From positions 95,270 to 159,269 of the IMG/VR virus record IMGVR_UViG_3300033074_000580: 64,000 bases of DNA; one strand, 5' to 3'. The notes beneath the pieces were generated by a model, which did not search any database, had not been told where the DNA came from, and saw only the letters and a program-made list of their open reading frames with translations. Of this stretch, positions 12,659 to 26,108 are shown piece after piece (the first letter of the stretch is position 1; each line of letters starts with the position of its first letter). The position numbers and the translations under genes were made by a program. This DNA is from a virus (lineage: Duplodnaviria; Heunggongvirae; Uroviricota; Caudoviricetes).

Positions 12659-14311
12659 TTACTCGACGATTAAGTCAACTTTATTTCCTTTCGCGTCAAC
12701 AGCATCAGATAAAACAAAGTAGAATAAACCGGCGGTATTTGTTAAAGTTGTTTTTGGTGTGAATACTAACTTATATGGAGTACCAACTTTAATTCTTGCA
12801 GTTTTCAATTGGTCAATAGAACCAAATGTTAATCTACCGTTTTCATGTGTTGAGAAGTTAGTTATTGTAGAACCTGCATCAAATATTACATTATCTAAAT
12901 TTAATTTAGACTCATCGTAATTCATCACAACTTGTAAACCCGCTAACTCTGCCTTTGTTAATGTTGTTGTTAAAATTACTTTACCACCTTCTAATGTTGA
13001 TGTTATACCTAATGTTGCCTTTTCAGCTGCAACTGTTTGATATGCCATTGGTGCGGTGCTCATAGATTTAATTGAATTTGTTGCGATTTCACTTACCGCA
13101 TTTGTATATTGTCCTGCACTTATTTTACTAGCAATTACCGAAGGGTCTGATGAATGTGACCAGTTTAAGTCACCACCCCAAGCAAATACTACATACACTT
13201 CTTTAATTGGTGAATCAATTAAAACTCTATTTTTTACAACACCATCTAACCAACTTTGATTCAATAGACCACTATACCATCTTACCGATGTTGAAGTTGA
13301 TGTAGGAATCATTGCCACAGAACTCATGTCTTGTCCCATAACATGTGCAAATAATGAGTAAGAATCGGCCTCACCAAATGGATTTGCGTTATTTGTAACT
13401 TTACCTACTTTCTTTTCCAATGTTGGTAATGTGAAGAAGTTTGGTGTTCCACTAATGTCAGTTTGTGAGTGTCCTAAAAATGCTTTGTATGCATCAGATA
13501 CTGTCACAATATTATTCATCCAAGCTTTAGTCATTGCCGGTCCAACAAATACACCAACTGAATCGCCAACTTTAACTTGTGTCGTGAATAATGCTTCACC
13601 ACTTGCATCCAATGGTAATTGTGCGATAGGTTGTTGCGACCAATCGATTTCACCACTACCATTTGATTTCAATCTCATCAATTGAACACTATGGTCAGTA
13701 ATCGTATATCCTTGTGGATATAATACTTTTACTTTGAATTGTGACGTGTTACCAACAACATTACTTAATGATGACCAACCACCACCATAGATTGTACCAA
13801 CATTTTGACCGGCAGTATCCGTACCTGTTGCCAAATCTATTTTAAAAATATTGTTATATGTGTTTTGGTCTTTTAGTATGTATTTTTGAGTTGCAATTAA
13901 CCCACTAATAGACACATCCGCTCTTTGAACTGTTAATTGACCAACATTCCAATCTGCATTTACCACGTAATTCCATGGAGTTAATCCATATTGAACATCT
14001 AAATCATTATCACTAGCACCACCATTAAAATTAAATTTGTAGTTATTCCAACCGGTGTAGAATGTTTGTGCTGAAACACCTTGATTAAATGTGGTTGACA
14101 CATAAGCTAATGCCTTGTTGTTATATTGGTATCTGAACCAAAGATAACGTGGATTTTTAATTACTTGTCCTTTTGTTAAATTGTATTTTACGGTTATTGT
14201 GTCTCCAACCTTTAAACCTGTTGCAGGTGTTAAAGATTGACTAATCGTCAATTGTCCAAAAGATGTTAAGGCGAACAATAAGAAAACGCCGAGAGAGATT
14301 AGTTTTTTCAT
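12659..14311 (-). CDS. secreted cohesin-like/dockerin-like modular protein
   Basis: KVGDTITVKY..FRYQYNNKAL; VTVSDAYKAF (matches VSVSDVYLAF in neighbour); LAGLQVVMNYDESKL. Confidence 0.6.
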   Translation of the reverse strand: MKKLISLGVFLLFALTSFGQLTISQSLTPATGLKVGDTITVKYNLTKGQVIKNPRYLWFRYQYNNKALAYVSTTFNQGVSAQTFYTGWNNYKFNFNGGASDNDLDVQYGLTPWNYVVNADWNVGQLTVQRADVSISGLIATQKYILKDQNTYNNIFKIDLATGTDTAGQNVGTIYGGGWSSLSNVVGNTSQFKVKVLYPQGYTITDHSVQLMRLKSNGSGEIDWSQQPIAQLPLDASGEALFTTQVKVGDSVGVFVGPAMTKAWMNNIVTVSDAYKAFLGHSQTDISGTPNFFTLPTLEKKVGKVTNNANPFGEADSYSLFAHVMGQDMSSVAMIPTSTSTSVRWYSGLLNQSWLDGVVKNRVLIDSPIKEVYVVFAWGGDLNWSHSSDPSVIASKISAGQYTNAVSEIATNSIKSMSTAPMAYQTVAAEKATLGITSTLEGGKVILTTTLTKAELAGLQVVMNYDESKLNLDNVIFDAGSTITNFSTHENGRLTFGSIDQLKTARIKVGTPYKLVFTPKTTLTNTAGLFYFVLSDAVDAKGNKVDLIVE

Positions 14312-14313
14312 TT

Positions 14314-14832
14314 TTACTTTTTGTTAAAAAATATTTTATTGATTAGTGATTCGCACGTCTTTTTTATTGCGGACGACAACGCTTGTTGATTTACTTTTCC
14401 ACTACCTTCATCGGTAATTAAAGTTGAAGTTGAAATTTCTGAACTTGATTCTTCAGCCGTACCATCTTTTATCTTCTTACCGTTATTATCGACAAGAAGA
14501 CCTTTCATCACGACCAAAGTTTCTTCAACATCTGAGTGAAATACTGAGACGTTACGCTTTGTTCTGTTTACGTCAAAATAAAGAATATCCGCACTGAAGA
14601 CTAAGTCTGCTTGACTTTGGTCCTCAACAATTGAGAATTCTTTATCCTGTAAAATTTCTTGAAAAATGTTCTTTACACCGAACGCAAAGTTTCGATTACC
14701 GGTGAACTTACCAATCTTGATTTTGTTCTCTACTGCACTGATATACACCTTTTTAGTGTCCTGAGCAAATGAAGAGAGTGCTAAGGACAAAGTGAATAAA
14801 AGGAGGAGAGAGATTCCCTTTATTTTTGTCAT
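14314..14832 (-). CDS. secreted CsgG-like/alpha-beta envelope protein
   Basis: Signal peptide; similar layout to 7299-8018 (FAFGVKNI..., ALSSAIKK); TATTTAT motif just upstream. Confidence 0.5.
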   Translation of the reverse strand: MTKIKGISLLLLFTLSLALSSFAQDTKKVYISAVENKIKIGKFTGNRNFAFGVKNIFQEILQDKEFSIVEDQSQADLVFSADILYFDVNRTKRNVSVFHSDVEETLVVMKGLLVDNNGKKIKDGTAEESSSEISTSTLITDEGSGKVNQQALSSAIKKTCESLINKIFFNKK

Positions 14833-14923
14833 ACTGATAAATATCAGGTTCGGGCAACTAGTCCAAAAAAAATTATGTTATAACTTTTTTTTATCTTTTC
14901 TTGTTTTTCTCGATACTTATTAG

Positions 14924-14931
14924 TATCTTTG
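14924..14931 (+). promoter_or_regulatory. Bacteroidota-type -7 promoter element for tRNA cluster 1 leader
   Basis: TATCTTTG matches TAnnTTTG. Confidence 0.7.
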
Positions 14932-14959
14932 TAAAAGATTTAAATAAAAAACAAATTCA

Positions 14960-15058
14960 ATGAGACAATTAGTACATACAATGTCGTTTATTATCTGTTC
15001 AAAATGGGCGGATGAGCGTTCTATGTCTATAGGTCTCGATGATACTGATGTGGGTTAA
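14960..15058 (+). CDS. 32-aa leader peptide of putative attenuator 1 (MRQLVHTMSFIICSKWADERSMSIGLDDTDVG)
   Basis: Lies between promoter and terminator; codons match the cluster 1 tRNAs; contains antiterminator segment 15033-15039. Confidence 0.75.
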   Translation: MRQLVHTMSFIICSKWADERSMSIGLDDTDVG

Positions 15059-15081
15059 ATTAGTTTAACTTAAAATATTAG

Positions 15082-15113
15082 AAAACCTCGGGACAAAATC
15101 TCGGGGTTTTTTT
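15082..15113 (+). terminator. attenuator/terminator hairpin upstream of tRNA cluster 1
   Basis: AAAACCTCGGGA/TCTCGGGGTTTT stem + T run. Confidence 0.8.
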
Positions 15114-15118
15114 ATTTT

Positions 15119-15191
15119 GGGCCGGATGTCAATGGCAGACCACCTGATTTGCAATCAGAGTGAAAGGGTTCGATTCCCTACGTGTCCACCA
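15119..15191 (+). tRNA. trnA: tRNA-Ala(UGC)
   Basis: Anticodon loop TTTGCAA, G3.U70, encoded CCA; irregular acceptor stem. Confidence 0.8.
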
Positions 15192-15193
15192 TA

Positions 15194-15268
15194 TTCTTAG
15201 GTAACTCAATGGTGAGAGTACCTCGCTGATACCGAGGAGGTTGGTAGTTCGAATCTACCCCTAAGAAC
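15194..15268 (+). tRNA. trnI: tRNA-Ile(GAU)
   Basis: TTCTTAG/CTAAGAA acceptor; CCTCG-CTGATAC-CGAGG; TTCGAAT. Confidence 0.9.
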
Positions 15269-15272
15269 TGAA

Positions 15273-15345
15273 GGAGATGAAGCTAACTTAGTAGAAGCGA
15301 AGGACTGAAAATCCTTAGGAATTGGAGCGTAACCAATCATCTCCA
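15273..15345 (+). tRNA. trnF: tRNA-Phe(GAA), atypical T-loop AGCGTAA
   Basis: GGAGATG/CATCTCC; AAGGA-CTGAAAA-TCCTT. Confidence 0.85.
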
Positions 15346-15411
15346 CAAAACCAATTTGATAAATGATACGAGCCTCCAAAGTTCGAAATGAGTTATCTTA
15401 TTGGTTTTAAT

Positions 15412-15485
15412 GACCTCGTAGCTCAATTGGTTAGAGCACTACACTTTTAATGTAGGGGTTCTGCGTTCGAGTCGCAGCGGGGTCA
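15412..15485 (+). tRNA. trnK: tRNA-Lys(UUU)
   Basis: GACCTCG/CGGGGTC; CTACA-CTTTTAA-TGTAG. Confidence 0.92.
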
Positions 15486-15491
15486 CAACAC

Positions 15492-15562
15492 ACGGGTGTA
15501 GTTCAATGGTAGAATTATGGTCTCCAAAACCATCGATGGGAGTTCGAATCTCTCCACCCGTG
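15492..15562 (+). tRNA. trnW: tRNA-Trp(CCA)
   Basis: ACGGGTG/CACCCGT; ATGGT-CTCCAAA-ACCAT. Confidence 0.92.
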
Positions 15563-15577
15563 CTAAAATTAAAAACA

Positions 15578-15823
15578 ATGGAACAAGATAACGTTTTAAA
15601 CAGATTGGTACCAAGATTAAAAAAGATAGGAATCAACATAGAAATGTCGGGTAACTATCCTTGGATTTATCTTGATAAGGTGAATGGTAATAGAATTAAA
15701 AAAGAAGATTACTTCTGTGGTAATCACGGATTTACAATTGCATTTTTACCTATAAAACCTAATGTTAAAATGGAATTGACGGACATAAAAGAAGTTTTTA
15801 AAGTGATAAGAAAATACAAATAA
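15578..15823 (+). CDS. hypothetical protein inside the tRNA array
   Basis: Start moved to ATG 15578 (the longer ORF overlaps tRNA-Trp). Confidence 0.65.
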   Translation: MEQDNVLNRLVPRLKKIGINIEMSGNYPWIYLDKVNGNRIKKEDYFCGNHGFTIAFLPIKPNVKMELTDIKEVFKVIRKYK

Positions 15824-15852
15824 TGTTTACTGTTTATAGTAAATAGTAAATA

Positions 15853-15924
15853 GGTCTCTTGGTGTAATGAATAGCACGAAACACTACGGATGTTTTGGTA
15901 AGGGTTCAAATCCTTTAGAGACCT
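15853..15924 (+). tRNA. trnR: tRNA-Arg(ACG)
   Basis: GGTCTCT/AGAGACC; AAACA-CTACGGA-TGTTT. Confidence 0.9.
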
Positions 15925-15984
15925 CAATGTTCACAAATTTTAGATGTTCACGGAACGTGAACAGAAGAAAAAAGTGAACAAACA

Positions 15985-16059
15985 AGTCAGGTTGGCCGAG
16001 TTGGTTTAGGTGATGGTCTGCAAAACCATTTACATTGGTTCGAATCCAATACTTGACTC
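15985..16059 (+). tRNA. trnC: tRNA-Cys(GCA)
   Basis: AGTCAGG/CTTGACT; ATGGT-CTGCAAA-ACCAT. Confidence 0.9.
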
Positions 16060-16063
16060 ATAT

Positions 16064-16135
16064 GGTGTTTGAAGCTTTAAGGTGAAGCACGAGTTTGTGG
16101 AGCTCGGGAAGTCGGTTCGATACCGTCCTAACACC
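16064..16135 (+). tRNA. trnH: tRNA-His(GUG)
   Basis: 8-bp acceptor with G-1; CGAGT-TTGTGGA-GCTCG. Confidence 0.88.
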
Positions 16136-16140
16136 CAAAT

Positions 16141-16209
16141 TGCGGGAAGAAAAGGTTTCCCACCGGTCTCATAAGCCGAGTGTTTCAGGTTCGATTCCTG
16201 ATCCCGCAA
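16141..16209 (+). tRNA. trnM: tRNA-Met(CAU), probably elongator, short D-arm
   Basis: TGCGGGA/TCCCGCA; loop CTCATAA; TTCGATT. Confidence 0.75.
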
Positions 16210-16250
16210 CAAAAAGATTTTGAATATTTTGTAATTTCACAATTTATTCT

Positions 16251-16258
16251 TATCTTTG
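16251..16258 (+). promoter_or_regulatory. internal Bacteroidota-type promoter upstream of tRNA-fMet
   Basis: TATCTTTG. Confidence 0.6.
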
Positions 16259-16268
16259 TAAAACAAAT

Positions 16269-16341
16269 CGCGAGATAGTAGCAGCGGTAGCTCGCAAGGC
16301 TCATAACCTTGAGGTCGGGGGTTCGATTCCCTCTCTCGCAA
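16269..16341 (+). tRNA. trnfM: initiator tRNA-fMet(CAU)
   Basis: C1:A72 mismatch; loop CTCATAA. Confidence 0.88.
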
Positions 16342-16344
16342 CAA

Positions 16345-16608
16345 CAGGTGAAGACTGTGGTGGAACCCCACGGTATATGAATCCTAAACAGCCGTCTTGA
16401 TTCGCGGTATCAGAGCGGTGAAGGTAGAGTCACTATAAGTGGGGAGTAATTAACCCAATTGCGAAAATGTGACCACCAAGTGTAGAGGTACATTTGGTCA
16501 TGATGTTCGAATGGGAACGAAAAACCTGTAACTTATTGAGACTAACTCAACGAGGACTTTGTTAACCATGGCATGACCAGGAGGTGCAATTTAAGGTGAG
16601 TTAGAATC
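16345..16608 (+). ncRNA. unidentified ~260-nt structured RNA
   Basis: CAGGT/ACCTG long-range stem, TGACCA..TGGTCA and CTAACTCA/TGAGTTAG helices; higher GC, no ORF. Confidence 0.55.
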
Positions 16609-16613
16609 AAAAT

Positions 16614-16686
16614 GGGATTGAGGTCAAACGGTTAAGATGTCGCCCTGTCACGGCGCACGGAGCGGGTTCAACTCCCGTCAGTCCCG
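16614..16686 (+). tRNA. trnD: tRNA-Asp(GUC)
   Basis: GGGATTG/CAGTCCC; loop CTGTCAC. Confidence 0.9.
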
Positions 16687-16689
16687 CAA

Positions 16690-16897
16690 TGAGTAAGAGA
16701 TACTCAGGAAGTTTGGTAACGTTCTTTATAAATGTTATAGTTGACGCCTCAAACAACTCAAAGATGAGGTCGTGGGAACGAAGGACATCAACAATCCTCC
16801 CAGTAGTTGTGACTTTTATGTGCGGCTAAGGACCGTCGAGAGTTTTGAAGAGAAAAACCTAAGAAAATCCTACTCACCCGAATCTCAAGGTGGGGCA
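16690..16897 (+). ncRNA. unidentified ~210-nt multi-hairpin RNA
   Basis: TGAGTA-AGAGA-TACTCA, CCTCA/TGAGG, CTCACC/GGTGGG hairpins between tRNAs. Confidence 0.45.
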
Positions 16898-16901
16898 AAT
16901 T

Positions 16902-16988
16902 GGAGAGTTGGTAGAGCGGTTGAATACACCAGTCTTGAAAACTGGCATACTGGAAACGGTATCCGGGGTTCGAATCCCTGACTCTCCG
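16902..16988 (+). tRNA. trnS: tRNA-Ser(UGA)
   Basis: GGAGAGT/ACTCTCC; CCAGT-CTTGAAA-ACTGG; long variable arm. Confidence 0.92.
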
Positions 16989-16993
16989 CATTT

Positions 16994-17065
16994 GCTCGGT
17001 TCGACTAGTGGTTAGGTCGCATCCCTTTCACGGATGTAGCACGGGTTCGAATCCCGTACCGAGTA
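16994..17065 (+). tRNA. trnE: tRNA-Glu(UUC)
   Basis: GCTCGGT/ACCGAGT; CATCC-CTTTCAC-GGATG. Confidence 0.92.
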
Positions 17066-17107
17066 CTTCGTATATTTATATATAGATGGGTTACGACATC
17101 TAAAAAA

Positions 17108-17560
17108 ATGAAGAAAGTTTTCTTATTATTAGTCATTATGTTTTTGGGAGTGGAAACAATGACGTTTGGACAAGATATCAAATCATTATTTGATAAAACA
17201 AAATCACAAGAAGTTCTAATTTTCGGAACTAATAAATCTCAAGACGGTTACATTACGGGTGGTTATATGATTGGTGAATGGGGTCTTTATGCGGGATTTC
17301 CATATTCAGAAAGAAACAACTTATTAAACACATCAAATGGTACTGTTTCAAAGCAAATGAGATTCGGTATTTTAAAACAATTAAAACCTGATAAAATTTT
17401 AATGGGTGCAGGTGCTCAACCAACAAATGAAGGGACGAAATTAAATTGGTTTATTGGTTATAATCCATTACGTAGTAAAGACATGAAACTGTTAATAACA
17501 GGAAATGTAATCGGCTCAGAATTTGTTTTAGGTGCCGGTTTATCTTATAAAGTAAAATAA
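17108..17560 (+). CDS. secreted small beta-barrel-like protein between the tRNA clusters
   Basis: Signal peptide, alternating beta-strands, C-terminal GAGLSYKVK; TATTTATA upstream. Confidence 0.65.
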   Translation: MKKVFLLLVIMFLGVETMTFGQDIKSLFDKTKSQEVLIFGTNKSQDGYITGGYMIGEWGLYAGFPYSERNNLLNTSNGTVSKQMRFGILKQLKPDKILMGAGAQPTNEGTKLNWFIGYNPLRSKDMKLLITGNVIGSEFVLGAGLSYKVK

Positions 17561-17595
17561 TTTTAAAAAATATTTTACATTTTAAAAAATTTTTG

Positions 17596-17603
17596 TATAT
17601 TTG
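17596..17603 (+). promoter_or_regulatory. Bacteroidota-type promoter for tRNA cluster 2 leader
   Basis: TATATTTG. Confidence 0.7.
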
Positions 17604-17620
17604 ATTATACTTATTAAACA

Positions 17621-17731
17621 ATGAAGAACATAAATAATATATTGACCCTTACGAGTAGACCAGTTAATAATGGTAACGGGTATGGTGTGCAACCGTTATA
17701 TTACTTATGTTCGGATATCAATAAAGGATAA
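17621..17731 (+). CDS. 36-aa leader peptide of putative attenuator 2 (MKNINNILTLTSRPVNNGNGYGVQPLYYLCSDINKG)
   Basis: Lies between promoter and terminator; codons 3-29 all read by cluster 2 tRNAs; antiterminator segment 17708-17714. Confidence 0.78.
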   Translation: MKNINNILTLTSRPVNNGNGYGVQPLYYLCSDINKG

Positions 17732-17754
17732 TAAAATTTAAAACTTATATCGAG

Positions 17755-17784
17755 ACCCGAACACAAAAAATGTTCGGGTTTTTT
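17755..17784 (+). terminator. attenuator/terminator hairpin upstream of tRNA cluster 2
   Basis: ACCCGAACA/TGTTCGGGT stem + T run. Confidence 0.82.
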
Positions 17785-17844
17785 GTTTTATGATTTTTTA
17801 TTCTTATATTTGAATTGTAGTTCTTTGACATTGTGAGAAAATTT

Positions 17845-17929
17845 GCCGAGGTGATGGAATGGTAGACATGACAGACTTAAAATCTGTTGGGACGAAAGTC
17901 CCGTGCGGGTTCGACTCCCGCTCTCGGTA
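17845..17929 (+). tRNA. trnL: tRNA-Leu(UAA)
   Basis: ACAGA-CTTAAAA-TCTGT; variable arm. Confidence 0.92.
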
Positions 17930-17964
17930 CAAACACTATCGTTCTTTGATAAAATTAAAAGCGT

Positions 17965-18210
17965 ATGGATATACTATCATTTATTTTAGGAATGTCCGTT
18001 GTGGTGGTTATCGCAGTTGCGGTAGTTGCTGTAATGGCCTTTGTTAAGGTGAAGAAACATAACAAAGAAATTGAAACAATCCACACAATTATGAGTGGAG
18101 AATTTGAACGAGTGAACAGAGATATGACGGATATGCAAAGAGATATTTTCTCTTCGTTAGATTCCCGATTAGATAAACTAGAAAGTAAATTAAGCAGCCG
18201 TAAGGCATAA
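17965..18210 (+). CDS. membrane-anchored coiled-coil protein
   Basis: N-terminal TM, heptad C-terminus. Confidence 0.65.
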   Translation: MDILSFILGMSVVVVIAVAVVAVMAFVKVKKHNKEIETIHTIMSGEFERVNRDMTDMQRDIFSSLDSRLDKLESKLSSRKA

Positions 18211-18249
18211 AGATTAAATAAAAACTTTCAAAGACGATAGTGTTAATTT

Positions 18250-18323
<74 letters not shown>

Positions 18324-18324
18324 C

Positions 18325-18465
18325 AAAGATAATGGTCTGATGTTATTATGGTTGTCGACAAACCTGATAACTACTTCAACAGACAGCACCCTCTGCCGAG
18401 GCCTCAGTAAAACTCTGATGAAGCAGTTAAGATTGGAACGAGACGGGTATTCCATCATTGTCTTT
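18325..18465 (+). ncRNA. unidentified ~140-nt structured RNA
   Basis: AAAGATAATG/CATTGTCTTT closing stem enclosing several hairpins. Confidence 0.5.
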
Positions 18466-18471
18466 ATTTTT

Positions 18472-18547
18472 ATAGATGTAGAGGAGACAGGTTTATCTCG
18501 CCACATTTGGGATGTGGAGCACGTAGGTTCGAATCCTACCATCTATA
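18472..18547 (+). tRNA. trnP: tRNA-Pro(UGG)
   Basis: ATAGATG/CATCTAT; CCACA-TTTGGGA-TGTGG. Confidence 0.9.
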
Positions 18548-18553
18548 CAACAC

Positions 18554-18625
18554 GCTGATGTAGCTCAACGGCAGAGCAATTGACTGTTAATCAATAGGTT
18601 GAGATATCGTAATTCTCCATCAGCG
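18554..18625 (+). tRNA. trnN: tRNA-Asn(GUU), atypical T-arm
   Basis: GCTGATG/CATCAGC; ATTGA-CTGTTAA-TCAAT. Confidence 0.85.
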
Positions 18626-18631
18626 CAACAT

Positions 18632-18712
18632 GGCCGAGTGGTGTAATGGGAGCCACGCTAGTTTTAGGCACTAGTGTCGAAAGACGTGAGAGTTCGAATC
18701 TCTCCTTGGTCA
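18632..18712 (+). tRNA. trnL: tRNA-Leu(UAG)
   Basis: CTAGT-TTTAGGC-ACTAG; variable arm. Confidence 0.88.
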
Positions 18713-18718
18713 CAAAAT

Positions 18719-18802
18719 TGGAGGATGGGTGAGTGGCTAAAACCGGCAGACTGTAAATCTGCTCTCAGAACGGGTACGGGGGTTCGAATCCCTCTCCTCC
18801 AA
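18719..18802 (+). tRNA. trnY: tRNA-Tyr(GUA)
   Basis: TGGAGGA/TCCTCCA; GCAGA-CTGTAAA-TCTGC. Confidence 0.92.
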
Positions 18803-18808
18803 CATTTT

Positions 18809-18882
18809 GGACTTGTAGCTCAGTAGGTTAGAGCAACTGACTCATAATCAGTAGGTCCCTGGTTCGAGCCCAGGCTGGTCCA
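18809..18882 (+). tRNA. trnI: tRNA-Ile2(CAU, lysidine type)
   Basis: ACTGA-CTCATAA-TCAGT; body resembles bacterial Ile2 rather than Met tRNAs. Confidence 0.75.
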
Positions 18883-18961
18883 CGCAATGTGTCATTAGTC
18901 CCTGAAGTAATTCAAACTAATGGTCTCGGTAGACAGAACGCGTCTGATTCTACCCACAATT

Positions 18962-19033
18962 AGTCTCTTAGCTCAGAGGGAGAGCACTTGCCTTACATGC
19001 AAGGGGTCGGGATTTCAAAATTCTCAGGGACTA
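18962..19033 (+). tRNA. trnV: tRNA-Val(UAC)
   Basis: AGTCTCT/AGGGACT; CTTGC-CTTACAT-GCAAG. Confidence 0.88.
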
Positions 19034-19039
19034 CAACAA

Positions 19040-19115
19040 GCGGAAGTAGCTCATTCGGTAGAGCGACGCCTTGCCAAGGCGTAGGTGGCCAGTTCGAGCC
19101 TGGTCTTCCGCTCCA
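19040..19115 (+). tRNA. trnG: tRNA-Gly(GCC)
   Basis: GCGGAAG/CTTCCGC; ACGCC-TTGCCAA-GGCGT; encoded CCA. Confidence 0.93.
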
Positions 19116-19118
19116 TAA

Positions 19119-19190
19119 GCTCGGTTAGTTCAACCGGTAGAACAAATGATTTGTAATCATTAGACAACAGTTCGAATCTGTTACTGAGCT
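19119..19190 (+). tRNA. trnT: tRNA-Thr(UGU)
   Basis: GCTCGGT/ACTGAGC; AATGA-TTTGTAA-TCATT. Confidence 0.9.
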
Positions 19191-19244
19191 CAAAATAAAA
19201 TAAATACTTCCAAGTTTTTAATGTATTTGGAAGTATTTATAGAT

Positions 19245-19676
19245 ATGAAAACAAAAATATGCCCAAAATGTGAAATAGAATTACCATTAGATGATGAACA
19301 TTTCGCATCAAGATATGATAGAAAAGAAAAAATGTTCCAACATATCTGTAGAAAATGTCAAAGTGAGTATAGAAAAATTCACTATGAAAAAAATAAACAA
19401 AAATATATTGATAAGGCTAAGGTTTTTACTCAATCAATTAAAGAATGGTTTATTGAATATAAAAAAACATTAAAATGTAAAGAATGTGGTGAGGATAGGT
19501 ATTGGGTGTTAGATTTCCATCACAGGGACCCAAAAGAAAAAGATATTGATGTTTCTACTTTAATTAGAAAAGGAAACAAAAATAAAATATTAAAAGAAGT
19601 TGAAAAATGTGATGTTCTATGTTCTAATTGTCATAGAGATTTACATTTTAAACAAAATAATGCGGATTTCGCCTAG
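19245..19676 (+). CDS. HNH homing endonuclease
   Basis: N-terminal CxxC pairs; LDFHHRDP..CDVLCSNCHR; start moved to ATG 19245. Confidence 0.85.
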   Translation: MKTKICPKCEIELPLDDEHFASRYDRKEKMFQHICRKCQSEYRKIHYEKNKQKYIDKAKVFTQSIKEWFIEYKKTLKCKECGEDRYWVLDFHHRDPKEKDIDVSTLIRKGNKNKILKEVEKCDVLCSNCHRDLHFKQNNADFA

Positions 19677-19735
19677 TTGGTATGGCATCACACTTCCAAT
19701 GTGAAATAGGGTCGGTTCGAGCCCGATAATCCGCT
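19662..19735 (+). tRNA. trnG: tRNA-Gly(UCC)
   Basis: GCGGATT/AATCCGC; TCACA-CTTCCAA-TGTGA. Confidence 0.9.
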
Positions 19736-19741
19736 CATAAC

Positions 19742-19816
19742 TGTCCTCTCGTATATCGGTTATTACATCTGGTTTTGGTCCAGATAAGTGGGGTTCGATT
19801 CCCTGGGGGACATCCA
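19742..19816 (+). tRNA. trnQ: tRNA-Gln(UUG)
   Basis: TGTCCTC/GGGGACA; TCTGG-TTTTGGT-CCAGA; encoded CCA. Confidence 0.9.
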
Positions 19817-19828
19817 AAATTTTAAACT

Positions 19829-20059
19829 ATGAGTATTTTTGCAATTTATTACGTAATATGTATTGCGTATTGTTTTTATCAATTAAATAAGAAATATAAA
19901 AACAGAGGTATCGATTACGGAACATCACCTGAATTAGATTCCATTATGGTTTTAGTAATGGCTTGGATTTTAGCACCAATTGATGTTTCTATAACTTGGA
20001 TACGAATGGTAAAAGAAGCTGAAGAAGCTAAAAGAAGACAAGATAAACAAGTACTTTAA
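19829..20059 (+). CDS. small two-TM membrane protein
   Basis: Two hydrophobic segments. Confidence 0.6.
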   Translation: MSIFAIYYVICIAYCFYQLNKKYKNRGIDYGTSPELDSIMVLVMAWILAPIDVSITWIRMVKEAEEAKRRQDKQVL

Positions 20060-20060
20060 C

Positions 20061-20146
20061 GGAGAGTTACCCAAGTTGGTGAAGGGGGCAGTTTGCTAAA
20101 CTGTTAGGTCGTTCGCGGCGCAAGGGTTCGAGTCCCTTACTCTCCG
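20061..20146 (+). tRNA. trnS: tRNA-Ser(GCU)
   Basis: GGAGAGT/ACTCTCC; loop TTGCTAA; variable arm. Confidence 0.92.
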
Positions 20147-20151
20147 CACAT

Positions 20152-20300
20152 TGTAGTGTGACGAAACTTTGGCAGACGTGCCCTCCTGTCTCGGGGGTGT
20201 GGACAAAGAAATAGACAAGTGATATGGGGTAGACCACCTTCCGGCCGGATGTGTTACTTGTTGAATCTCCACTTGAGTGGTTCGAATCCCTCCACTACAG
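20152..20300 (+). ncRNA. 149-nt tRNA-like RNA with giant branched variable arm
   Basis: TGTAGTG/CACTACA acceptor, Leu-like D-loop, CCCTC-CTGTCTC-GGGGG, TTCGAAT T-loop, ~75-nt insert. Confidence 0.75.
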
Positions 20301-20331
20301 CTAAACAATAATTATAATAAATGAAAATGTA

Positions 20332-20793
20332 ATGAAAAAATTTAGAACTCTCTACGGAACTCCAATTCCAGATGTTGTTGAATACATCAGAGAGTACATC
20401 TCAACAAGAGAGGATGTGGAAATCCTTATTGGTTCTGACTCACAATGTTATGGTAATCGTAAAACAATTTATGGTATCGTAGTTGCTCTTTATACAAAGG
20501 GTAAAGGTGCTCATGTATTGTGTACACGTGAAACTGTTCCTATGGAACATAACACACCATCAAGATTACTAAGTGAAGTTTGGAAATCTCTTGAGATTGC
20601 TGAATATTTAAAAGATAATGGGTTACCAAAACCAACTTGGATTGATATTGATTTGAATCCTGACCCTAAATACAAATCTAATTCTGTTTTAAGACAAGCA
20701 GTTGGTATGGTTGAAGGTATGGGATATAAAGTTAGATACAAACATGTTGGTGCTTTAATGACCTATGCTGCAAATCATTTAGTAAGATTATAA
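20332..20793 (+). CDS. YkuK/DUF458 RNase H-like protein
   Basis: ILIGSDSQ, RLLSEVWKS, IDIDLNP..KSN pattern. Confidence 0.8.
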   Translation: MKKFRTLYGTPIPDVVEYIREYISTREDVEILIGSDSQCYGNRKTIYGIVVALYTKGKGAHVLCTRETVPMEHNTPSRLLSEVWKSLEIAEYLKDNGLPKPTWIDIDLNPDPKYKSNSVLRQAVGMVEGMGYKVRYKHVGALMTYAANHLVRL

Positions 20794-20794
20794 T

Positions 20795-21526
20795 ATGAAG
20801 ATTGTTGGTTTTGGTGATAGCTTCATCCAACCCAAAAGTACGGTTGAATATCAATACACAAGATTAGTTATTGATAAGTTTGGTGGGGAGTTTGAATTAT
20901 TTGGTGTCAATGGATGTGGAATTTGGGATACCTTTTTTGAATTTAAAAGATACGCCGAAACAAATAAATCATTTTCTGATGTCGATTTAATTTTATTTGC
21001 ATGGTCAGACGCGAGTCGATTATATAATAGTGAAGTTAGAAATGCCTGTTATGCGAATTCAATAAATCACAAAGACTCAAAAGACCCATTTTGGATTGCG
21101 GTTAAAAATTATTACGAACATATTTTTGATATTGATAAGACAAGATATGAATTTGATGCGTTCTATTATTGGGTAGATGATTGGTTTGAGAAAAACTATC
21201 CTGACAAGAAAATTGTCAATATGTATAGTTTTCCTAAAATGACCAAATCATCGGCGGTGTATTTCGAATATTTGGATATAGTTAAAAATAATCCTGAAAA
21301 TGAAGTTTATTATCATGAATTTAAAAATTCAGTAACAATTAAACCGTCTTTATTACATTTTAGTTTAAACGATGAATGGCCCGAAGATAATGATTTAAGT
21401 AGAGAACACAGATTCCAACATTTAACACCTAAAATGCATAAAGAGGTGTCAAAAATTTTAATCGAATCGATTGAAAAGTATGAAAAAGGAAAAGTTTTCA
21501 CTTATAAACCGAAAAAATTTATTTAA
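20795..21526 (+). CDS. SGNH-hydrolase-like protein
   Basis: N-terminal GDSF, C-terminal HLT..H. Confidence 0.55.
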   Translation: MKIVGFGDSFIQPKSTVEYQYTRLVIDKFGGEFELFGVNGCGIWDTFFEFKRYAETNKSFSDVDLILFAWSDASRLYNSEVRNACYANSINHKDSKDPFWIAVKNYYEHIFDIDKTRYEFDAFYYWVDDWFEKNYPDKKIVNMYSFPKMTKSSAVYFEYLDIVKNNPENEVYYHEFKNSVTIKPSLLHFSLNDEWPEDNDLSREHRFQHLTPKMHKEVSKILIESIEKYEKGKVFTYKPKKFI

Positions 21527-21578
21527 TATTTTTTATTCTTAAAATTTTTATCTATATTTGTAATATAAAGATTGAATT

Positions 21579-21800
21579 ATGAAATGTATTAAGTTAATTA
21601 AGGCAAGTAAAGGTCACGAAATTGGTGATATACTAAGAGTAGATGACAATGAAGCGGATTTAAGAGTTAAAGGTGGTTATTGGGCATTTGCACCAAAGAC
21701 TGAATATAAACTATTTAAAAATCCTGATTATAAAACTAAGAAGACAACTGAAAAAGTTTCTTCTAAGAAACAATTAAAGAAGACAAAAACTTCTGAATAA
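21579..21800 (+). CDS. small basic hypothetical protein
   Basis: TATATTTG promoter at 21553. Confidence 0.6.
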   Translation: MKCIKLIKASKGHEIGDILRVDDNEADLRVKGGYWAFAPKTEYKLFKNPDYKTKKTTEKVSSKKQLKKTKTSE

Positions 21801-21850
21801 AAAAAATAAAAAAAGTTTCACAAATATTTTGTTTTCTCAAAAAGTCTTCG

Positions 21851-21887
21851 TATATTTGTAAAACAATAAGAGAAAAAGTTCTTTGAA
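21851..21887 (+). promoter_or_regulatory. promoter (TATATTTG) plus boxA-like AGTTCTTTGAA upstream of the large ncRNA
   Basis: A similar GTTCTTTGA motif occurs at 17820 and 17941 in tRNA cluster 2. Confidence 0.55.
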
Positions 21888-21894
21888 TTAAAAA

Positions 21895-22700
21895 TATTGG
21901 CCGCCTATGGTCATTAAATAAACTGTGAAAGCAGTATAAAGTGAGTCTGAATTAGTTATTTGGATTTGCGGTTTTCGAAAGAGAACTCGAGTAGGCAAGC
22001 GGGATATCATTGAACCGTAAGTACTGAGGGTAACACTGTAGGGAAAGTGGTTTGGTGACTGAGCGATACCGGTCGTTCAGTTGAGGTGGGAACACTAATA
22101 AGAATAACTCGTAGAATTGTTGTGAGAAGTATGGTCATCCAACTATACAATTGCGGAATTCAATACAATGGGAATCTTAAAACCGAAAGGTATGATTGAG
22201 TACAGGTGGTGCTGTTACAGTCCTTGATTTGAATCTACCAAGGTTCATGTCTCGAAGGGGTCCAAAAGTGTGGAGGTCGGGAGACTTCAGAGGGTAGTTT
22301 AGTATTTCGTCGCTCAAAAGGTGATGAAGCTGGTTGACGGACCGCTACCTTCCAAATCGGTAACTAAAATCATTTTGTTAATTTTGGTTTAACAACTTAA
22401 AAGCAAAAGGAAAAGTGTCCGTCAGTCATTGGAGACAGGTGACTACATAGTCGTGAGGGGTTCACGGCCACAAAGGGTCCCAAACCCGATGTGAATTATG
22501 AGAAAGTTCTCTAGTCCCGCAAGGATGAGTTGGGGTGGCAACCTCGAAGAGTAATGAGTATTATGAGAGTATCTAATGACTCAAGGATTGGTTAATCTAA
22601 TTGACCGTCACTGGTTGGTACAGTTCAAAAGACTGTGGATATGAAAGGAAACAATAATCTTTCTAAAGTCAACTACTAAAACTTGTAATCTCAGAGTTTT
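21895..22700 (+). ncRNA. ~800-nt large structured RNA, GOLLD-like
   Basis: ORF-free, raised GC, many GNRA hairpins, repeated YCAAAAG loops; size and tRNA-proximal phage context fit GOLLD; family not verified. Confidence 0.65.
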
Positions 22701-22814
22701 CTTTTATCTATTAACAGTTATCTTTTAACTTTTTATTTTTTCTTAGTTTTTTACGAATAAACTAAGTGGTGGAATTAAGTACGATATTAAAAACCGTGCG
22801 GCCCTCAACAAATT

Positions 22815-22842
22815 AGTCAGAAGAAATTCTGACTTTTTTTTT
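22815..22842 (+). terminator. Rho-independent terminator
   Basis: AGTCAGAA-GAAA-TTCTGACT + T run. Confidence 0.8.
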
Positions 22843-22875
22843 GCTTTTTAAAATATATTTTGTATATTAGTTATT

Positions 22876-23625
22876 ATGAGAATAGTTTGTATATCCGACA
22901 CACATAGTTTACATGAAAACATGAGACATGAATTACCAAAGGGTAATATATTGATTCATGCGGGTGATATTTCTAATAGAGGTGGTGAAAGAGATGTAAC
23001 TAATTTCATACATTGGTTTCAAAACATTGAAGGTTATGATATGAAGATATTTGTATCAGGTAATCATGATTTTTGTTTTGAGAGAGTTAATGAACCACAT
23101 CATAAAGGTGACTATGATTGGTTACATCATTTAATGTCAGAAGAAAATTTATCACAATCAGATGTGGTTTATTTGGAAGATGATTATGTATTATATGTAA
23201 GTGACGAACTTTCAATACCTTTAAAAATTTATGGTAGTCCTTGGCAACCATGGTTTTATGATTGGGCATTTAATTTACCAAGATTAGGAACTGAATTACA
23301 AGAAAAGTGGGATATGATTCCTATGGATACCGATATTTTAATTACTCATGGACCACCTAATGGTTATGGTGATTTTGTAGATAATTTTAGACAACCAAAT
23401 CGTAATGTGGGTTGTGAATTATTAAGAAATAAAATTGAAGAAATAAATCCAATATTAAATATCTTCGGTCACATACATGAAGGATATGGTGTTTATACTA
23501 ATGAAAAAACCACATTTGTTAATGCATCAACATGTACTGCGAGATATGAACCAACAAATAAACCAATCATTATTGATTTAATCGAAATTGACGGTAAAGT
23601 AATTGCAACATATGTCCAAGAATAA
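22876..23625 (+). CDS. calcineurin-like metallophosphoesterase
   Basis: ISDTH, HAGD, GNHD, LITHGPP, GHIHE. Confidence 0.9.
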   Translation: MRIVCISDTHSLHENMRHELPKGNILIHAGDISNRGGERDVTNFIHWFQNIEGYDMKIFVSGNHDFCFERVNEPHHKGDYDWLHHLMSEENLSQSDVVYLEDDYVLYVSDELSIPLKIYGSPWQPWFYDWAFNLPRLGTELQEKWDMIPMDTDILITHGPPNGYGDFVDNFRQPNRNVGCELLRNKIEEINPILNIFGHIHEGYGVYTNEKTTFVNASTCTARYEPTNKPIIIDLIEIDGKVIATYVQE

Positions 23626-24295
23626 TCAACCAATTAGTGTAGTAATATCCACAAGAAAAATTGATGATACGTACCTAAAGCACGTAGAAAAAATGTTTTC
23701 ACATCCAAAAACGGAAATACTAATTTACGAAAATGAAGGTGAATTTACACTACCTGAATTATATAATAAAGGTTTAGACGAATCGTCAAATGATATTGTT
23801 GTTTTCATGCACGATGATTTAATTTTAGAAACACCAAACATCACACCTAAAGTTGTTAAACTGTTTGAACAAAATCCAGAATTTGGAATTATAGGTTTGG
23901 CGGGTACTGATAATTTAATAAGTGGTATGTGGTGGCAAGATAGAGAATCGATGTACGGTGTTGTGGGTCATGAACATGAAGGTAAACGACATGTGAATCA
24001 CTATTCAAAACAATTGTTTGGTGAAAAACCAAAAGAGGTTGTGGTAATTGATGGTTTATTTATGATGGTACATAAGAATCGAATTAAACATAGATTTAAT
24101 GAAGAATTTAAAGGATTCCATTTTTATGATTTACCATTTTGTTTAGATAATTTTACAGATGGGGTTAAAGTTGGTGTAACCACTAAAATAATGGTAACAC
24201 ATAAATCCATTGGTATGGTAAATAAACAATGGGAAAAATATAAACTCTTTTTTGAGGCATTATATGAGAAACGATTCCCAATTAGAGTTAACTGA
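23612..24295 (+). CDS. GT-A fold glycosyltransferase (GT2-like)
   Basis: YNKGL, FMHDD, IDGLFM, FHFYD. Confidence 0.8.
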   Translation: MSKNNQPISVVISTRKIDDTYLKHVEKMFSHPKTEILIYENEGEFTLPELYNKGLDESSNDIVVFMHDDLILETPNITPKVVKLFEQNPEFGIIGLAGTDNLISGMWWQDRESMYGVVGHEHEGKRHVNHYSKQLFGEKPKEVVVIDGLFMMVHKNRIKHRFNEEFKGFHFYDLPFCLDNFTDGVKVGVTTKIMVTHKSIGMVNKQWEKYKLFFEALYEKRFPIRVN

Positions 24296-24337
24296 TTTTA
24301 ATATAATAACAGATATTTATATATAAACTTTTAAATT

Positions 24338-24553
24338 ATGAAGAAAATTTTTGAATTGATTAAGAAACTTTTGGGTGGCGGTTCTGCTGCTGAAAAGGCA
24401 GTACAATTAACCCAACTTGAGACTGAAGTTAAAAAAGAAGTTGCTGAAGTTAAAGAAGAAGTTAAAGAAATCGTAGCTGAAGTTAAAAAGAAGGTTGGTA
24501 GAAAACCGGCAGCTAAAAAACCGGCAGCAAAAACAACTGCTAAGAAAAAGTAA
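24338..24553 (+). CDS. small protein with histone-H1-like KPAAK tail
   Basis: KKKVGRKPAAKKPAAKTTAKKK; TATTTATA upstream. Confidence 0.7.
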   Translation: MKKIFELIKKLLGGGSAAEKAVQLTQLETEVKKEVAEVKEEVKEIVAEVKKKVGRKPAAKKPAAKTTAKKK

Positions 24554-24633
24554 TTATTTTTAATTAACATATACTGTTTTAGGGTTAAAATTTGTTTTTT
24601 AACCCTTTTTCATCTATATTTGTATTACCATTT

Positions 24634-25035
24634 GGGGATGTTTGGATTTGATTTCAGGTATCAGGGATAAATGGCACGTAGTCAGACTTCATCTATGACT
24701 TAAATCCACGGTGGAAAAAATTAGACGGCAACGTTTACAACAACATGGAAGTAGCAGGTATTCTTGCAACTTCTAACGTAGCAGTAGCCTAAGGCGAAAC
24801 TACCCTCGGGTCGACGTACATATAACCTAGGAACAGAAGTACTTAAAGTGTGATACCACTTAGAGTGTCAAAGGTCTCGTTCAGAGGGCTACCTTAAAGT
24901 GAACTCGACACAGTTATAGGGAACGATGTCAAAATAGGAACCTTTTATTTGTCAGTTGAGAACCAATTGAATAAACGTGTAGTCATTTATTGTTGAACAG
25001 GAAAGACACGGGTTCGACTCCCGTCATCTCCACCA
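24634..25035 (+). ncRNA. ssrA: tmRNA
   Basis: 5' GGGGATG / 3' CATCTCC-ACCA with G3.U; T-arm GGTTCGACTCC; tag ORF 24727-24792; TATATTTG promoter at 24615; terminator 25036-25060. Confidence 0.92.
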
Positions 25036-25202
25036 AAGGTCCTTTTTAAGGACCTTTTTTATTTAATTAAGATGAAAGTCTATTAACGAACAAAGAGGTC
25101 TTTAGGACCCCTCTGTCGAGATTAAGAACACCTCCTTTTCGTTTATAAGTATTATCGTTTAACGGCGACCAAACCAATTAAACTCTCTTATAAATATCTC
25201 AA

Positions 25203-26108
25203 TTATGCGTATTTTTGAGCAAATGCCTTTAATAATCCGATATTAAACATACCATTTAAACCACCATTTTCAGAGGAAACTTCATCTCTTCCTTCTATTT
25301 TAGCTAAATCGCTTTCAGATGTTGTTGAATTAACCATTTCAGAAAATTTTGGATTGTTTGCAAATCTTTCCAATTCTTTCGGGTCCCCCATCTTTTTTTC
25401 AAAATCACTTAAATTAGGTATACCTAAGAATGATAATAAATTATTTGCAGCAATGAAATTTCTAATATATTGTCTTTTAGCTCTACTACCTTTATATGTA
25501 ATGTTATACCATTTTGATAACCATGTACTTGGTACTTCACCTTTTTTTGCGATGTATTGTGCCAATTTTTCTTCTCTAAAGAATTTAGTTAAACCTCCAC
25601 CTATTTTACCTGTGTCGGCAATTGCATGTACAATACCTTTTGGTTTCTCTAATAATTTTGCAAAAACAGATTTGTGTGAAACAAGAGACTGTTCAACTTT
25701 TCTTGCAAATGTTGGTGAAACTTTTTCTAATTGACCTATAACCACTTTTAATGATTTGTTATCTAAATGTTTACCTAATTTCATGTATTGTTCCATTACT
25801 TTAGGATTTGCTTTTAAATATTTTACCAAATCATCAGTACTTTTAAGTGCAGTTTTTGCAACCGGATTTTTGAATATTTTAATTAAAGGTTTGGCAATAA
25901 AATCACCGACTGTTGGTATCAATGCAATTAACATTAAACCTGCATATAACCATTCTTTTTTATAACAATAGTATAATATTAAAACAAAGTCCGCAACTTC
26001 ACCAATCACAGGAAAAAAACCCGCAACCATCAAACTGTTTTCAATCCAGTTTTCATTTATAAGTTGTTTGTTCTCTAATATTTCTTTTTTATTTAAATGT
26101 TTTTCCAT
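25203..26108 (-). CDS. protein with pre-toxin TG (PT-TG)-like hydrophobic segment; putative virion/membrane protein
   Basis: VAGFFPVIGEVAD....LIPTVGD motif. Confidence 0.55.
   Translation of the reverse strand: MEKHLNKKEILENKQLINENWIENSLMVAGFFPVIGEVADFVLILYYCYKKEWLYAGLMLIALIPTVGDFIAKPLIKIFKNPVAKTALKSTDDLVKYLKANPKVMEQYMKLGKHLDNKSLKVVIGQLEKVSPTFARKVEQSLVSHKSVFAKLLEKPKGIVHAIADTGKIGGGLTKFFREEKLAQYIAKKGEVPSTWLSKWYNITYKGSRAKRQYIRNFIAANNLLSFLGIPNLSDFEKKMGDPKELERFANNPKFSEMVNSTTSESDLAKIEGRDEVSSENGGLNGMFNIGLLKAFAQKYA

Follow-up and report, generated by a model that had tools for sequence, protein, structure and literature searches.

The leaders of ilvGMEDA (Ile/Leu/Val), ilvBN (Val/Leu) and thr (Thr/Ile) each hold a short open reading frame (ORF) with tandem runs of codons for 2-3 amino acids, an intrinsic terminator, and an antiterminator that excludes the terminator and has its upstream strand at the ORF end. 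When decoding is slow, read-through follows, and the products of the operon relieve the shortage that was sensed. In trpL, two adjacent codons in segment 1 of a four-segment RNA serve as the sensor. Leader-peptide attenuation also reaches a gene of the translation apparatus in Escherichia coli, where pheST, coding for an aminoacyl-transfer RNA (tRNA) synthetase, is controlled through the pheM leader. T-box elements bind one uncharged tRNA without translation and couple its status to the choice between terminator and antiterminator. We analyzed a 64,000-nucleotide stretch of a Caudoviricetes virus (hereafter the window; positions 95270-159269 of the single 323,865-bp contig of IMG/VR record IMGVR_UViG_3300033074_000580, 32% GC), in which two tRNA arrays are each preceded by a short leader ORF holding a long run of codons read by the array behind it. 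We consider it likely that both units are ribosome-mediated transcription attenuators of the trp/ilv type, which would give demand-driven tRNA expression. A first-pass annotation of the sequence had proposed this interpretation, and it is supported by the present analysis, as its predictions on the antiterminator, the geometry and the covariation held. The computations show that codons match arrays, that alternative pairings exist and covary, and that leader and array contents vary together.

ARAGORN detected 23 tRNAs and a transfer-messenger RNA (tmRNA) in the window. Rfam added three weaker tRNAs, at 15119-15188 (UGC), 16141-16209 (CAU) and 16614-16686 (GUC, Asp), the first of which, tRNA-Ala-UGC, scored 29.7 bits, just at the Rfam threshold. 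ARAGORN run with -ps90 recovered all 26 tRNAs and zero extras in the 21 kb scanned, and no tRNAs beyond these 26 were found in the whole genome (323,865 bp). They form two blocks of 13 genes on the plus strand, with disjoint anticodon sets that jointly cover all 20 amino acids. Array 1 (15119-17066) comprises Ala-UGC, Ile-GAU, Phe, Lys, Trp, Arg-ACG, Cys, His, Met, an fMet-like tRNA, Asp, Ser-UGA and Glu. Array 2 (17845-20147), among whose genes small ORFs are scattered, comprises Leu-UAA, Arg-UCU, Pro, Asn, Leu-UAG, Tyr, an Ile2-like CAU tRNA, Val, Gly-GCC, Thr, Gly-UCC, Gln and Ser-GCU. The count, the split into two non-overlapping sets and the identities thus agree with those first annotated.

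Leader 1 is a plus-strand ORF of 32 codons plus stop (14960-15058) that encodes MRQLVHTMSFIICSKWADERSMSIGLDDTDVG; leader 2, of 36 codons plus stop, lies at 17621-17731 on the same strand and encodes MKNINNILTLTSRPVNNGNGYGVQPLYYLCSDINKG. Each of the 61 sense codons was assigned to the single phage tRNA that reads it. Codons 8-23 of leader 1 (14981-15028; MSFIICSKWADERSMS) are decoded by array 1 only, and codons 3-29 of leader 2 (17627-17707) by array 2 only. The 16-codon run of leader 1 samples 11 tRNA species, its whole ORF samples 12/12 elongator species of array 1, and the 27-codon run of leader 2 samples all 13 species of array 2. The match reaches the isoacceptor level (CGT versus AGA, TCN versus AGT, ATT/ATC versus ATA), and codons for Asn, Pro and Tyr are missing from leader 1. 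The array-linked codon enrichment takes an unusual form, in that many tRNAs are each represented by one to four codons.

Both runs, the isoacceptor match for Arg, Ser and Ile and the three absent amino acids had been claimed in the first-pass annotation and were borne out by the codon assignment. Its rough p values of about 1e-5 and 1e-8 were of the right order: with array-1 codons accounting for 46% of all coding codons in the genome, the runs have exact probabilities of 3.6e-5 (leader 1) and 2.8e-7 (leader 2). Given the run, the probability of the observed coverage is 0.0076 for leader 1 (11/12 species) and 0.049 for leader 2 (13/13). Combining run and coverage yields p of about 3e-7 and 1e-8, respectively, and a joint p < 1e-13 for both leaders. 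Complete polling in whole ORFs has a probability of 3.5e-4 (12/12) and 0.011 (13/13) relative to random ORFs of equal length. Among 3,577 ORFs of 20-80 amino acids from all six frames of the whole genome, both leaders rank first for the length of the run matching their own set (16 versus 13 for the next ORF, and 27 versus 17), and both also have the highest species diversity within the run. Short ORFs and T-rich hairpins are common at 32% GC and would lend themselves to a chance resemblance in AT-rich intergenic sequence. Such an origin is ruled out for all practical purposes by the ORF ranking, with its two first ranks, by the run probabilities and by the permutation tests given below, and relatives with only 50-92% identity in the anchor protein show both conservation and covariation of the design.

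Upstream of each leader, on the plus strand, lies a TAnnTTTG box that we regard as a putative promoter -7 element, TATCTTTG at 14924-14931 for leader 1 and TATATTTG at 17596-17603 for leader 2. Such a box is found at the equivalent place in 11/11 dereplicated two-array relatives. A sigma-70 scan showed no excess above shuffles. Only two strong plus-strand terminators were detected between 14 and 21 kb (15080-15112 and 17752-17782), each directly after a leader ORF. Intrinsic terminator 1 (15080-15116) has its 5' arm at 15085-15093 and its 3' arm at 15099-15107, followed by a T tract. Intrinsic terminator 2 (17752-17789) has its 5' arm, ACCCGAACA, at 17755-17763 and its 3' arm, UGUUCGGGU, at 17771-17779, again followed by a T tract. 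The genes upstream of leader 1 lie on the minus strand, and therefore no transcription reads in from there. With tRNA-Ala beginning 3-6 nucleotides past the T tract of terminator 1, no further entry point into array 1 is visible.

We searched the leader RNAs for alternative pairings. Both fold far better than shuffles (z of -7.0 for leader 1 and -4.7 for leader 2). In the minimum-free-energy fold of leader 1, segment 1 (14961-14966, + strand; UGAGAC), which overlaps the start codon, pairs with GUCUCG of segment 2 as an anti-antiterminator. Segment 2 (15033-15040, + strand; GUCUCGAU) has two possible partners, segment 1 and the terminator 5' arm. In leader 2, segment 1 (17626-17633, + strand; GAACAUAA, codons 2-5) pairs with 17705-17712 (UUAUGUUC, codons 29-31). 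These positions belong to segment 2 (17705-17715, + strand; UUAUGUUCGGA), whose invariant GUUCGG core is identical to the 3' arm of the terminator. Within it, AUGUUCGGA overlaps UUAUGUUC and has the terminator 5' arm ACCCGAACA as its alternative partner; in the other state, the arm and UGUUCGGGU together make up the terminator. The topology of leader 1 is equal, with UGAGAC:GUCUCG, then GUCUCGA:UCGGGAC, then the terminator.

These pairings are conserved. In an alignment of 15 relatives, the GUUCGG inside the ORF and GUUCGGG are invariant, and ACCCGAAC is invariant except in L027. Three pairs of the 1:2 helix of leader 2 show two-sided compensatory changes among the 15 sequences, and 91.5% of its full proposed structure is paired, versus less than 50% when the partners are slid. 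RNAalifold, applied to the leader 2 alignment, returned the terminator together with a small apical hairpin and no more; the 1:2 helix was specified by hand. Segments 2 and 3 of leader 1 change together, from GUCUCGA/UCGGGAC in the window to GUCUCAG/CUGAGAC in L004 and UCCCGAGG/CCUCGGGA in L018. Across 33 leaders, cognate 2:3 duplexes have a mean of -11.6 kcal/mol versus -6.6 kcal/mol for non-cognate ones, and there are at least 7 terminator sequences, each with a matching copy of its 3' arm inside its own ORF. The arrangement announced in the first-pass annotation, a TAnnTTTG box, short ORF, antiterminator-capable segment and intrinsic terminator ahead of each array, thus stands, and the ability of segment 2 to pair with the terminator 5' arm has been kept by compensatory change across lineages.

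In the mechanism that we favor, transcription would start at the TAnnTTTG promoter and a ribosome would begin to translate the leader. Segment 2, at the 3' end of the codon run, could pair with segment 3, the 5' arm of the terminator, and so block the 3:4 terminator hairpin. A fast ribosome would cover segment 2 before segment 3 emerges, letting the terminator form and stopping the polymerase before the tRNA genes. A ribosome delayed at any codon of the run would leave segment 2 free to pair with segment 3, and the polymerase would enter the array. Because the run consists of, and samples all of, the codons read by the array behind it, the tRNAs produced would relieve the delay that induced them, amounting to demand-driven negative feedback on each tRNA set. 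We infer that the leaders are translated and that RNA polymerase and ribosome are kinetically coupled.

The position at which a ribosome would make this decision was modeled by folding each leader with a ribosome mask. Full-length equilibrium folding with the mask gave no switching, the terminator being favored at every position in most leaders, and was replaced by folding of a transcript cut after segment 3, the state in which segment 3 has just emerged. When pairing across the ribosome was barred, the antiterminator probability of leader 1 was 0.8 with the A site at codons 1-21 and at most 0.1 from codon 23 onward. For leader 2 it was 0.9 at codons 1-25 and 0.2-0.3 from codon 27 onward. The predicted read-through windows agree with where the own-array runs end (codon 23 and codon 29, respectively). 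Codons and modeled structures, as independent lines of evidence, mark one window. Folded with no ribosome, leader 1 had a 2:3 pairing probability of 0.10, predicting termination, and leader 2 one of 0.46, which is ambiguous. One-array relatives show a like masking logic.

We then compared the content of leaders and arrays in relatives. BLASTN of 14800-17900 against deposited phages returned tRNA-sized matches only, a close relative being absent. Pfam searches of the ORFs within and flanking the arrays gave a single match, RNaseH_like (PF04308), in the ORF at 20332-20793 directly 3' of the arrays. This RNaseH-like protein was used to retrieve 67 IMG/VR loci with 50-92% identity, in which its gene is syntenic with the tRNA region. 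Both leaders are kept, with their ORFs open, in the two-array relatives; the leader 1 ORF spans 29-34 codons, with indels in frame. In five relatives (L018, L027, L028, L029 and L033), array 1 includes the tRNAs for Val and Thr. In these phages, leader 1 has gained V and T (...SFT(I/T)CSKWAEVAD...), with an own-array run of up to 28 codons, and Val and Thr are gone from the leader 2 run, YIQQPLNNPLSGNGRGIYL. In three of them (L027, L029 and L033), ARAGORN also calls a tRNA with a CUA anticodon, of the amber-suppressor type, at the end of array 2; none is present in the window. In L004, the Thr tRNA alone has moved, and leader 1 has gained four Thr codons. Recall of array species was 1.00 in 20/22 two-array leaders. 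Within the family, the mean F1 score between leader and array was 0.889 versus 0.684 (standard deviation, 0.033) after permutation, and 0/5,000 permutations reached the observed value.

More distant relatives have a single array behind a single leader, the end of which is homologous to leader 1 (...LEDTDVG). These one-array leaders are 39-53 codons long and specify 19-20 of the 20 amino acids, the probability of all 20 in a random peptide being 0.003-0.03, and they poll 21-24 of the 22-26 tRNA species present (P of 1e-3 to 1e-4). A leader with all or nearly all amino acids could be read as a general probe, a checkpoint for translation capacity or amino acid starvation that reports overall ribosome speed and sets the timing of tRNA synthesis. 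The clade L018-L033, in which the untranslated state predicts read-through as in a simple race, would also fit such a timer. A general probe would have no need for the partition of leaders by array, down to isoacceptors, that is seen in two- and multi-array phages, and we regard this explanation as improbable.

To find further families, IMG/VR was scanned for the terminator motif of leader 2, one representative of each of 13 leader families being retained. The sensor region was defined as the codons upstream of GUUCGG. Precision was 0.72, recall 0.95 and F1 0.81, versus a permuted F1 of 0.48 (standard deviation, 0.05; maximum, 0.65; 0/5,000). Thus, the covariation of leader codons with cluster content that had been proposed for testing by permutation was positive both within the family and across the 13 families. 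For example, MKLVNKQIVKHVIQFCQNWY... precedes Phe, Ile, Gln, Lys, Val, Tyr, Cys, His, Arg, Trp, Leu and Asn; ...GFNGCDWQQEPPCPF precedes Gly, Trp, Cys, Gln, Glu and Asp; and ...RSHKHFSKSSKWF... precedes Phe, His, Trp, Lys, Ser and Arg. The terminator core ACCCGAAC...GTTCGGGTTTTTT, in many cases with GTTCTTTGA after it, is found at the end of at least 13 leader families before very different arrays, and its carriers include L071, L086, L094, L122, L135, L147, L172 and L175. This suggests a modular cassette in which the ORF is rewritten and the switch is kept.

Several conditions are candidates for a natural trigger of tRNA depletion, namely a mismatch between the AT-rich codons of the phage and the host tRNA pool, breakdown or cleavage of host tRNAs in infection, anticodon nucleases and starvation. 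A broader proposal, which we put forward only tentatively, is that the cassette (promoter, test ORF, antiterminator and terminator) works as a modular "codon checklist", the loss of any single tRNA species switching on the array that replaces it. It might have evolved in giant phages against tRNA-targeting immunity or a phage-induced collapse of the host tRNA pool, and have been rewritten each time tRNAs were shuffled between arrays. If true, the cassette would be the first regulator known to monitor the tRNA pool one species at a time for the control of tRNA genes, as well as a natural per-codon reporter of decoding speed.

The same attenuator might instead have been selected mainly for counter-defense, as the first-pass annotation had specifically suggested: it would sense when anticodon nucleases, or other immunity directed at tRNAs, had removed particular host tRNAs, and switch on the replacement set. 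One codon per species would suit the all-or-none loss of a species better than graded starvation, the tRNAs polled are only those that the array can replace, and the phage carries a tmRNA, a rescuer of stalled ribosomes. Set against this, no sequence feature ties the unit to a nuclease, the design would equally serve codon usage compensation or homeostasis, and all tRNA species are polled, not just the usual targets of anticodon nucleases, which are Lys, Glu, Gln and Arg tRNAs. We therefore hold a primary role in counter-defense to be doubtful, if less so than the general checkpoint.

A number of observations speak against attenuation as we have described it. Among codons 1-7 of leader 1, five are from the array-2 set although they lie inside the predicted read-through window of that leader, and the precision of the whole ORFs in this phage is 0.65-0.83. 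As most tRNAs are sampled by one or two codons, sensitivity to a mild shortage is doubtful. Third-codon-position variability is raised only slightly and is not decisive as a coding test. The TAnnTTTG motif is uninformative as a stand-alone predictor without conservation, with 129 matches versus 106 expected in the window. Since equilibrium always favors the terminator, the decision must be kinetic (kinetic trapping), as in classical attenuators. In a laxer model that lets the RNA pair around the ribosome, no antiterminator was predicted for ribosomes stalled at codons 12-17 of leader 1; equal signaling from every position therefore cannot be claimed. The clade L018-L033 lacks the 1:2 anti-antiterminator, and its untranslated state predicts read-through with P of about 0.9. 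In L004, leader 2 retains one Thr codon, though the Thr tRNA has left array 2. In L022-L026, a full leader persists although the array has just 4 tRNAs, as Rfam also found. Relatives with 4-8 tRNAs have no leader and rely on promoter(+boxA) units alone. The boxA-like GTTCTTTGACAT ahead of array 2 is identical in 13/14 relatives, L016 being one base off. Finally, array 2, and the initiator tRNA through the box at 16251, are probably also transcribed independently of the attenuator, judging from the promoter-like boxes described next.

Between terminator 2 and array 2, on the plus strand, a promoter-like TATATTTG (17805-17812) is followed by the boxA-like GTTCTTTGACAT (17820-17831). The latter resembles the boxA of ribosomal RNA (rRNA) operons, and is a candidate site for Nus factors. 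The promoter box at 17805 is perfect in 8/14 relatives, degenerate in five and absent in L012. Because leaderless relatives with small tRNA sets use promoter(+boxA) units alone, array 2 probably has a basal, attenuator-independent promoter, to which the leader 2 promoter would probably add an inducible share. In array 1, a promoter-like TATCTTTG box (16251-16258, + strand) lies 18 nucleotides before the initiator-like tRNA (16269-16342), which carries a C1:A72 mismatch. This box is conserved in L005, L009, L014 and L027, and in one-array relatives (L036, L039, L043, L045 and L048) the initiator-like tRNA, again with a promoter-like box of its own, lies upstream of the leader, outside attenuator control. 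Since a ribosome-dependent sensor cannot report a shortage of initiator tRNA, its having its own box or lying upstream of the leader fits the attenuator model. The statement in the first-pass annotation that each operon is "gated" by its leader was therefore too strong for array 2 and the initiator tRNA (boxes at 17805 and 16251).

Such boxes raise the question of whether the leaders and terminators control the tRNAs at all, or whether the arrays are transcribed from internal promoter(+boxA) units, with the ORFs being micro-genes or structured RNAs and the terminators insulators. The box and boxA-like element after terminator 2, the box at 16251, the small-array relatives running on such units and the leaders retained in L022-L026 without most of the tRNAs all fit this explanation. 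It does not account for the codon/array match, the covariation across 13 families or the terminator-arm copy in segment 2 of each ORF, which is conserved and covaries. In addition, a further promoter would not fit ahead of tRNA-Ala in array 1, and L012 lacks the internal box. We thus find it as improbable as the general checkpoint.

The lineage formed by L022-L026, L112 and L154 has the complete leader 2 MMNLVHIQQTSNNPLSGNGRGLYLSNPSSDFKL and its terminator, ahead of an array of Leu-UAA, Arg-UCU, a CAU tRNA and Gly-GCC. It may be that tRNAs were recently lost in this lineage, or that its leader has another purpose.

Other features of the region were also noted. A cmscan of 14000-26000 with E up to 0.1 returned only tRNA, tmRNA and GOLLD, plus chance plastid and sRNA matches. 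The RNA or possible-RNA sequencing runs listed, all of them stored as contigs, contained at most 0.32 of the sampled words. The tmRNA (24634-25035; tag GNVYNNMEVAGILATSNVAVA) is preceded by a TATATTTG box at 24615; as the phage encodes it, a ribosome-rescue RNA sits beside its tRNA sets. A full-length GOLLD RNA (22290-22697; 322 bits in Rfam) is preceded by a TATATTTG box (21851) and a boxA-like GTTCTTTGA (21878), a unit that resembles the one before array 2. GTTCTTTGA has 7 matches in the window versus 2.7 expected. Three spacers in the arrays hold neither tRNAs nor ORFs (16343-16613, 16687-16901 and 18325-18471), the first of which folds somewhat better than shuffles (z of -2.4). Long tRNA-free spacers may be further structured RNAs freed by tRNA processing. 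After tRNA-Ser-GCU, a 150-nucleotide stretch (20148-20300) has an acceptor-like stem, GUAGUG...CACUAC, a T-loop-like 3' part, GGUUCGAAUCC, and a long insert. No tRNA caller made a call in this stretch, and its folding energy is ordinary (z of -0.4). An ORF of 143 amino acids inside array 2 (19245-19676) recalls homing endonucleases of the HNH or zinc-ribbon kind in its four CxxC pairs and C-terminal CSNCH motif; it had no Pfam match at E up to 0.01.

We found no published description of leader-peptide or attenuator control of phage tRNA genes in the full-text literature, the coverage of which is incomplete. To our knowledge, published discussion of phage tRNAs concerns their role, not the sensing of their supply. 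The present findings bear on the reasons for which large phages possess nearly complete sets of tRNAs, and on the use made of these. The attenuator reading implies that the phage would gauge, through the ribosome, the decoding speed of the codons of each block and make that block on demand. It would extend leader-peptide attenuation to RNA genes of the translation machinery, to the polling of up to two dozen tRNA species within fewer than 50 codons, and to viruses. Units of about 170 nucleotides each could serve as compact natural sensors of codon-specific decoding speed. As leader content predicts array content, it is also usable for annotating phage tRNA operons.

Returning to the known systems, neither the Rfam leader families (Trp_leader, His_leader, Leu_leader, Thr_leader, etc.) nor T-box matched in the cmscan of the region. 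The components of the leader-attenuator class, i.e., a promoter with an ORF, codons linked to the regulated genes, an intrinsic terminator and a maskable, exclusive antiterminator, are all present in the sequence. Like those of T4 and other large phages, the tRNA cluster is a large array in a large, lytic-type genome, here beside a tmRNA and GOLLD. The conserved GTTCTTTGACAT ahead of array 2 and the similar element before GOLLD recall the boxA of rrn operons, except that the phage element lies downstream of the attenuator, outside the sensing step. With T-box elements, the phage units share the coupling of tRNA status to the terminator/antiterminator choice, but their ORF spans the sensing region and they would sense many tRNAs through the ribosome. 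Unlike the phage units, pheST responds to one amino acid (Phe), yields a protein and is cellular.

The likeness to trpL is in topology, as both leaders of the window are predicted to form the 1:2 / 2:3 / 3:4 arrangement, and leader 1 is predicted to terminate when untranslated, like superattenuation. In contrast to the two trpL codons, the phage sensor codons span 16-27 codons inside the whole 1:2 hairpin, and some phage relatives lack 1:2. The closest described relatives of the phage units are the ilvGMEDA, ilvBN and thr leaders, with which they share the short multi-amino-acid ORF, the intrinsic terminator, the exclusive antiterminator and its upstream strand at the end of the ORF, and, as predicted, read-through upon slow decoding and relief of the sensed shortage by the products. 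They differ in being viral and in regulating tRNA genes, not biosynthetic enzymes. Instead of tandem runs, the phage leaders sample 12-13 tRNA species, or up to 24 in one-array phages, mostly once or twice each, and they discriminate between isoacceptors (CGU versus AGA, UCN versus AGU, AUU/C versus AUA).

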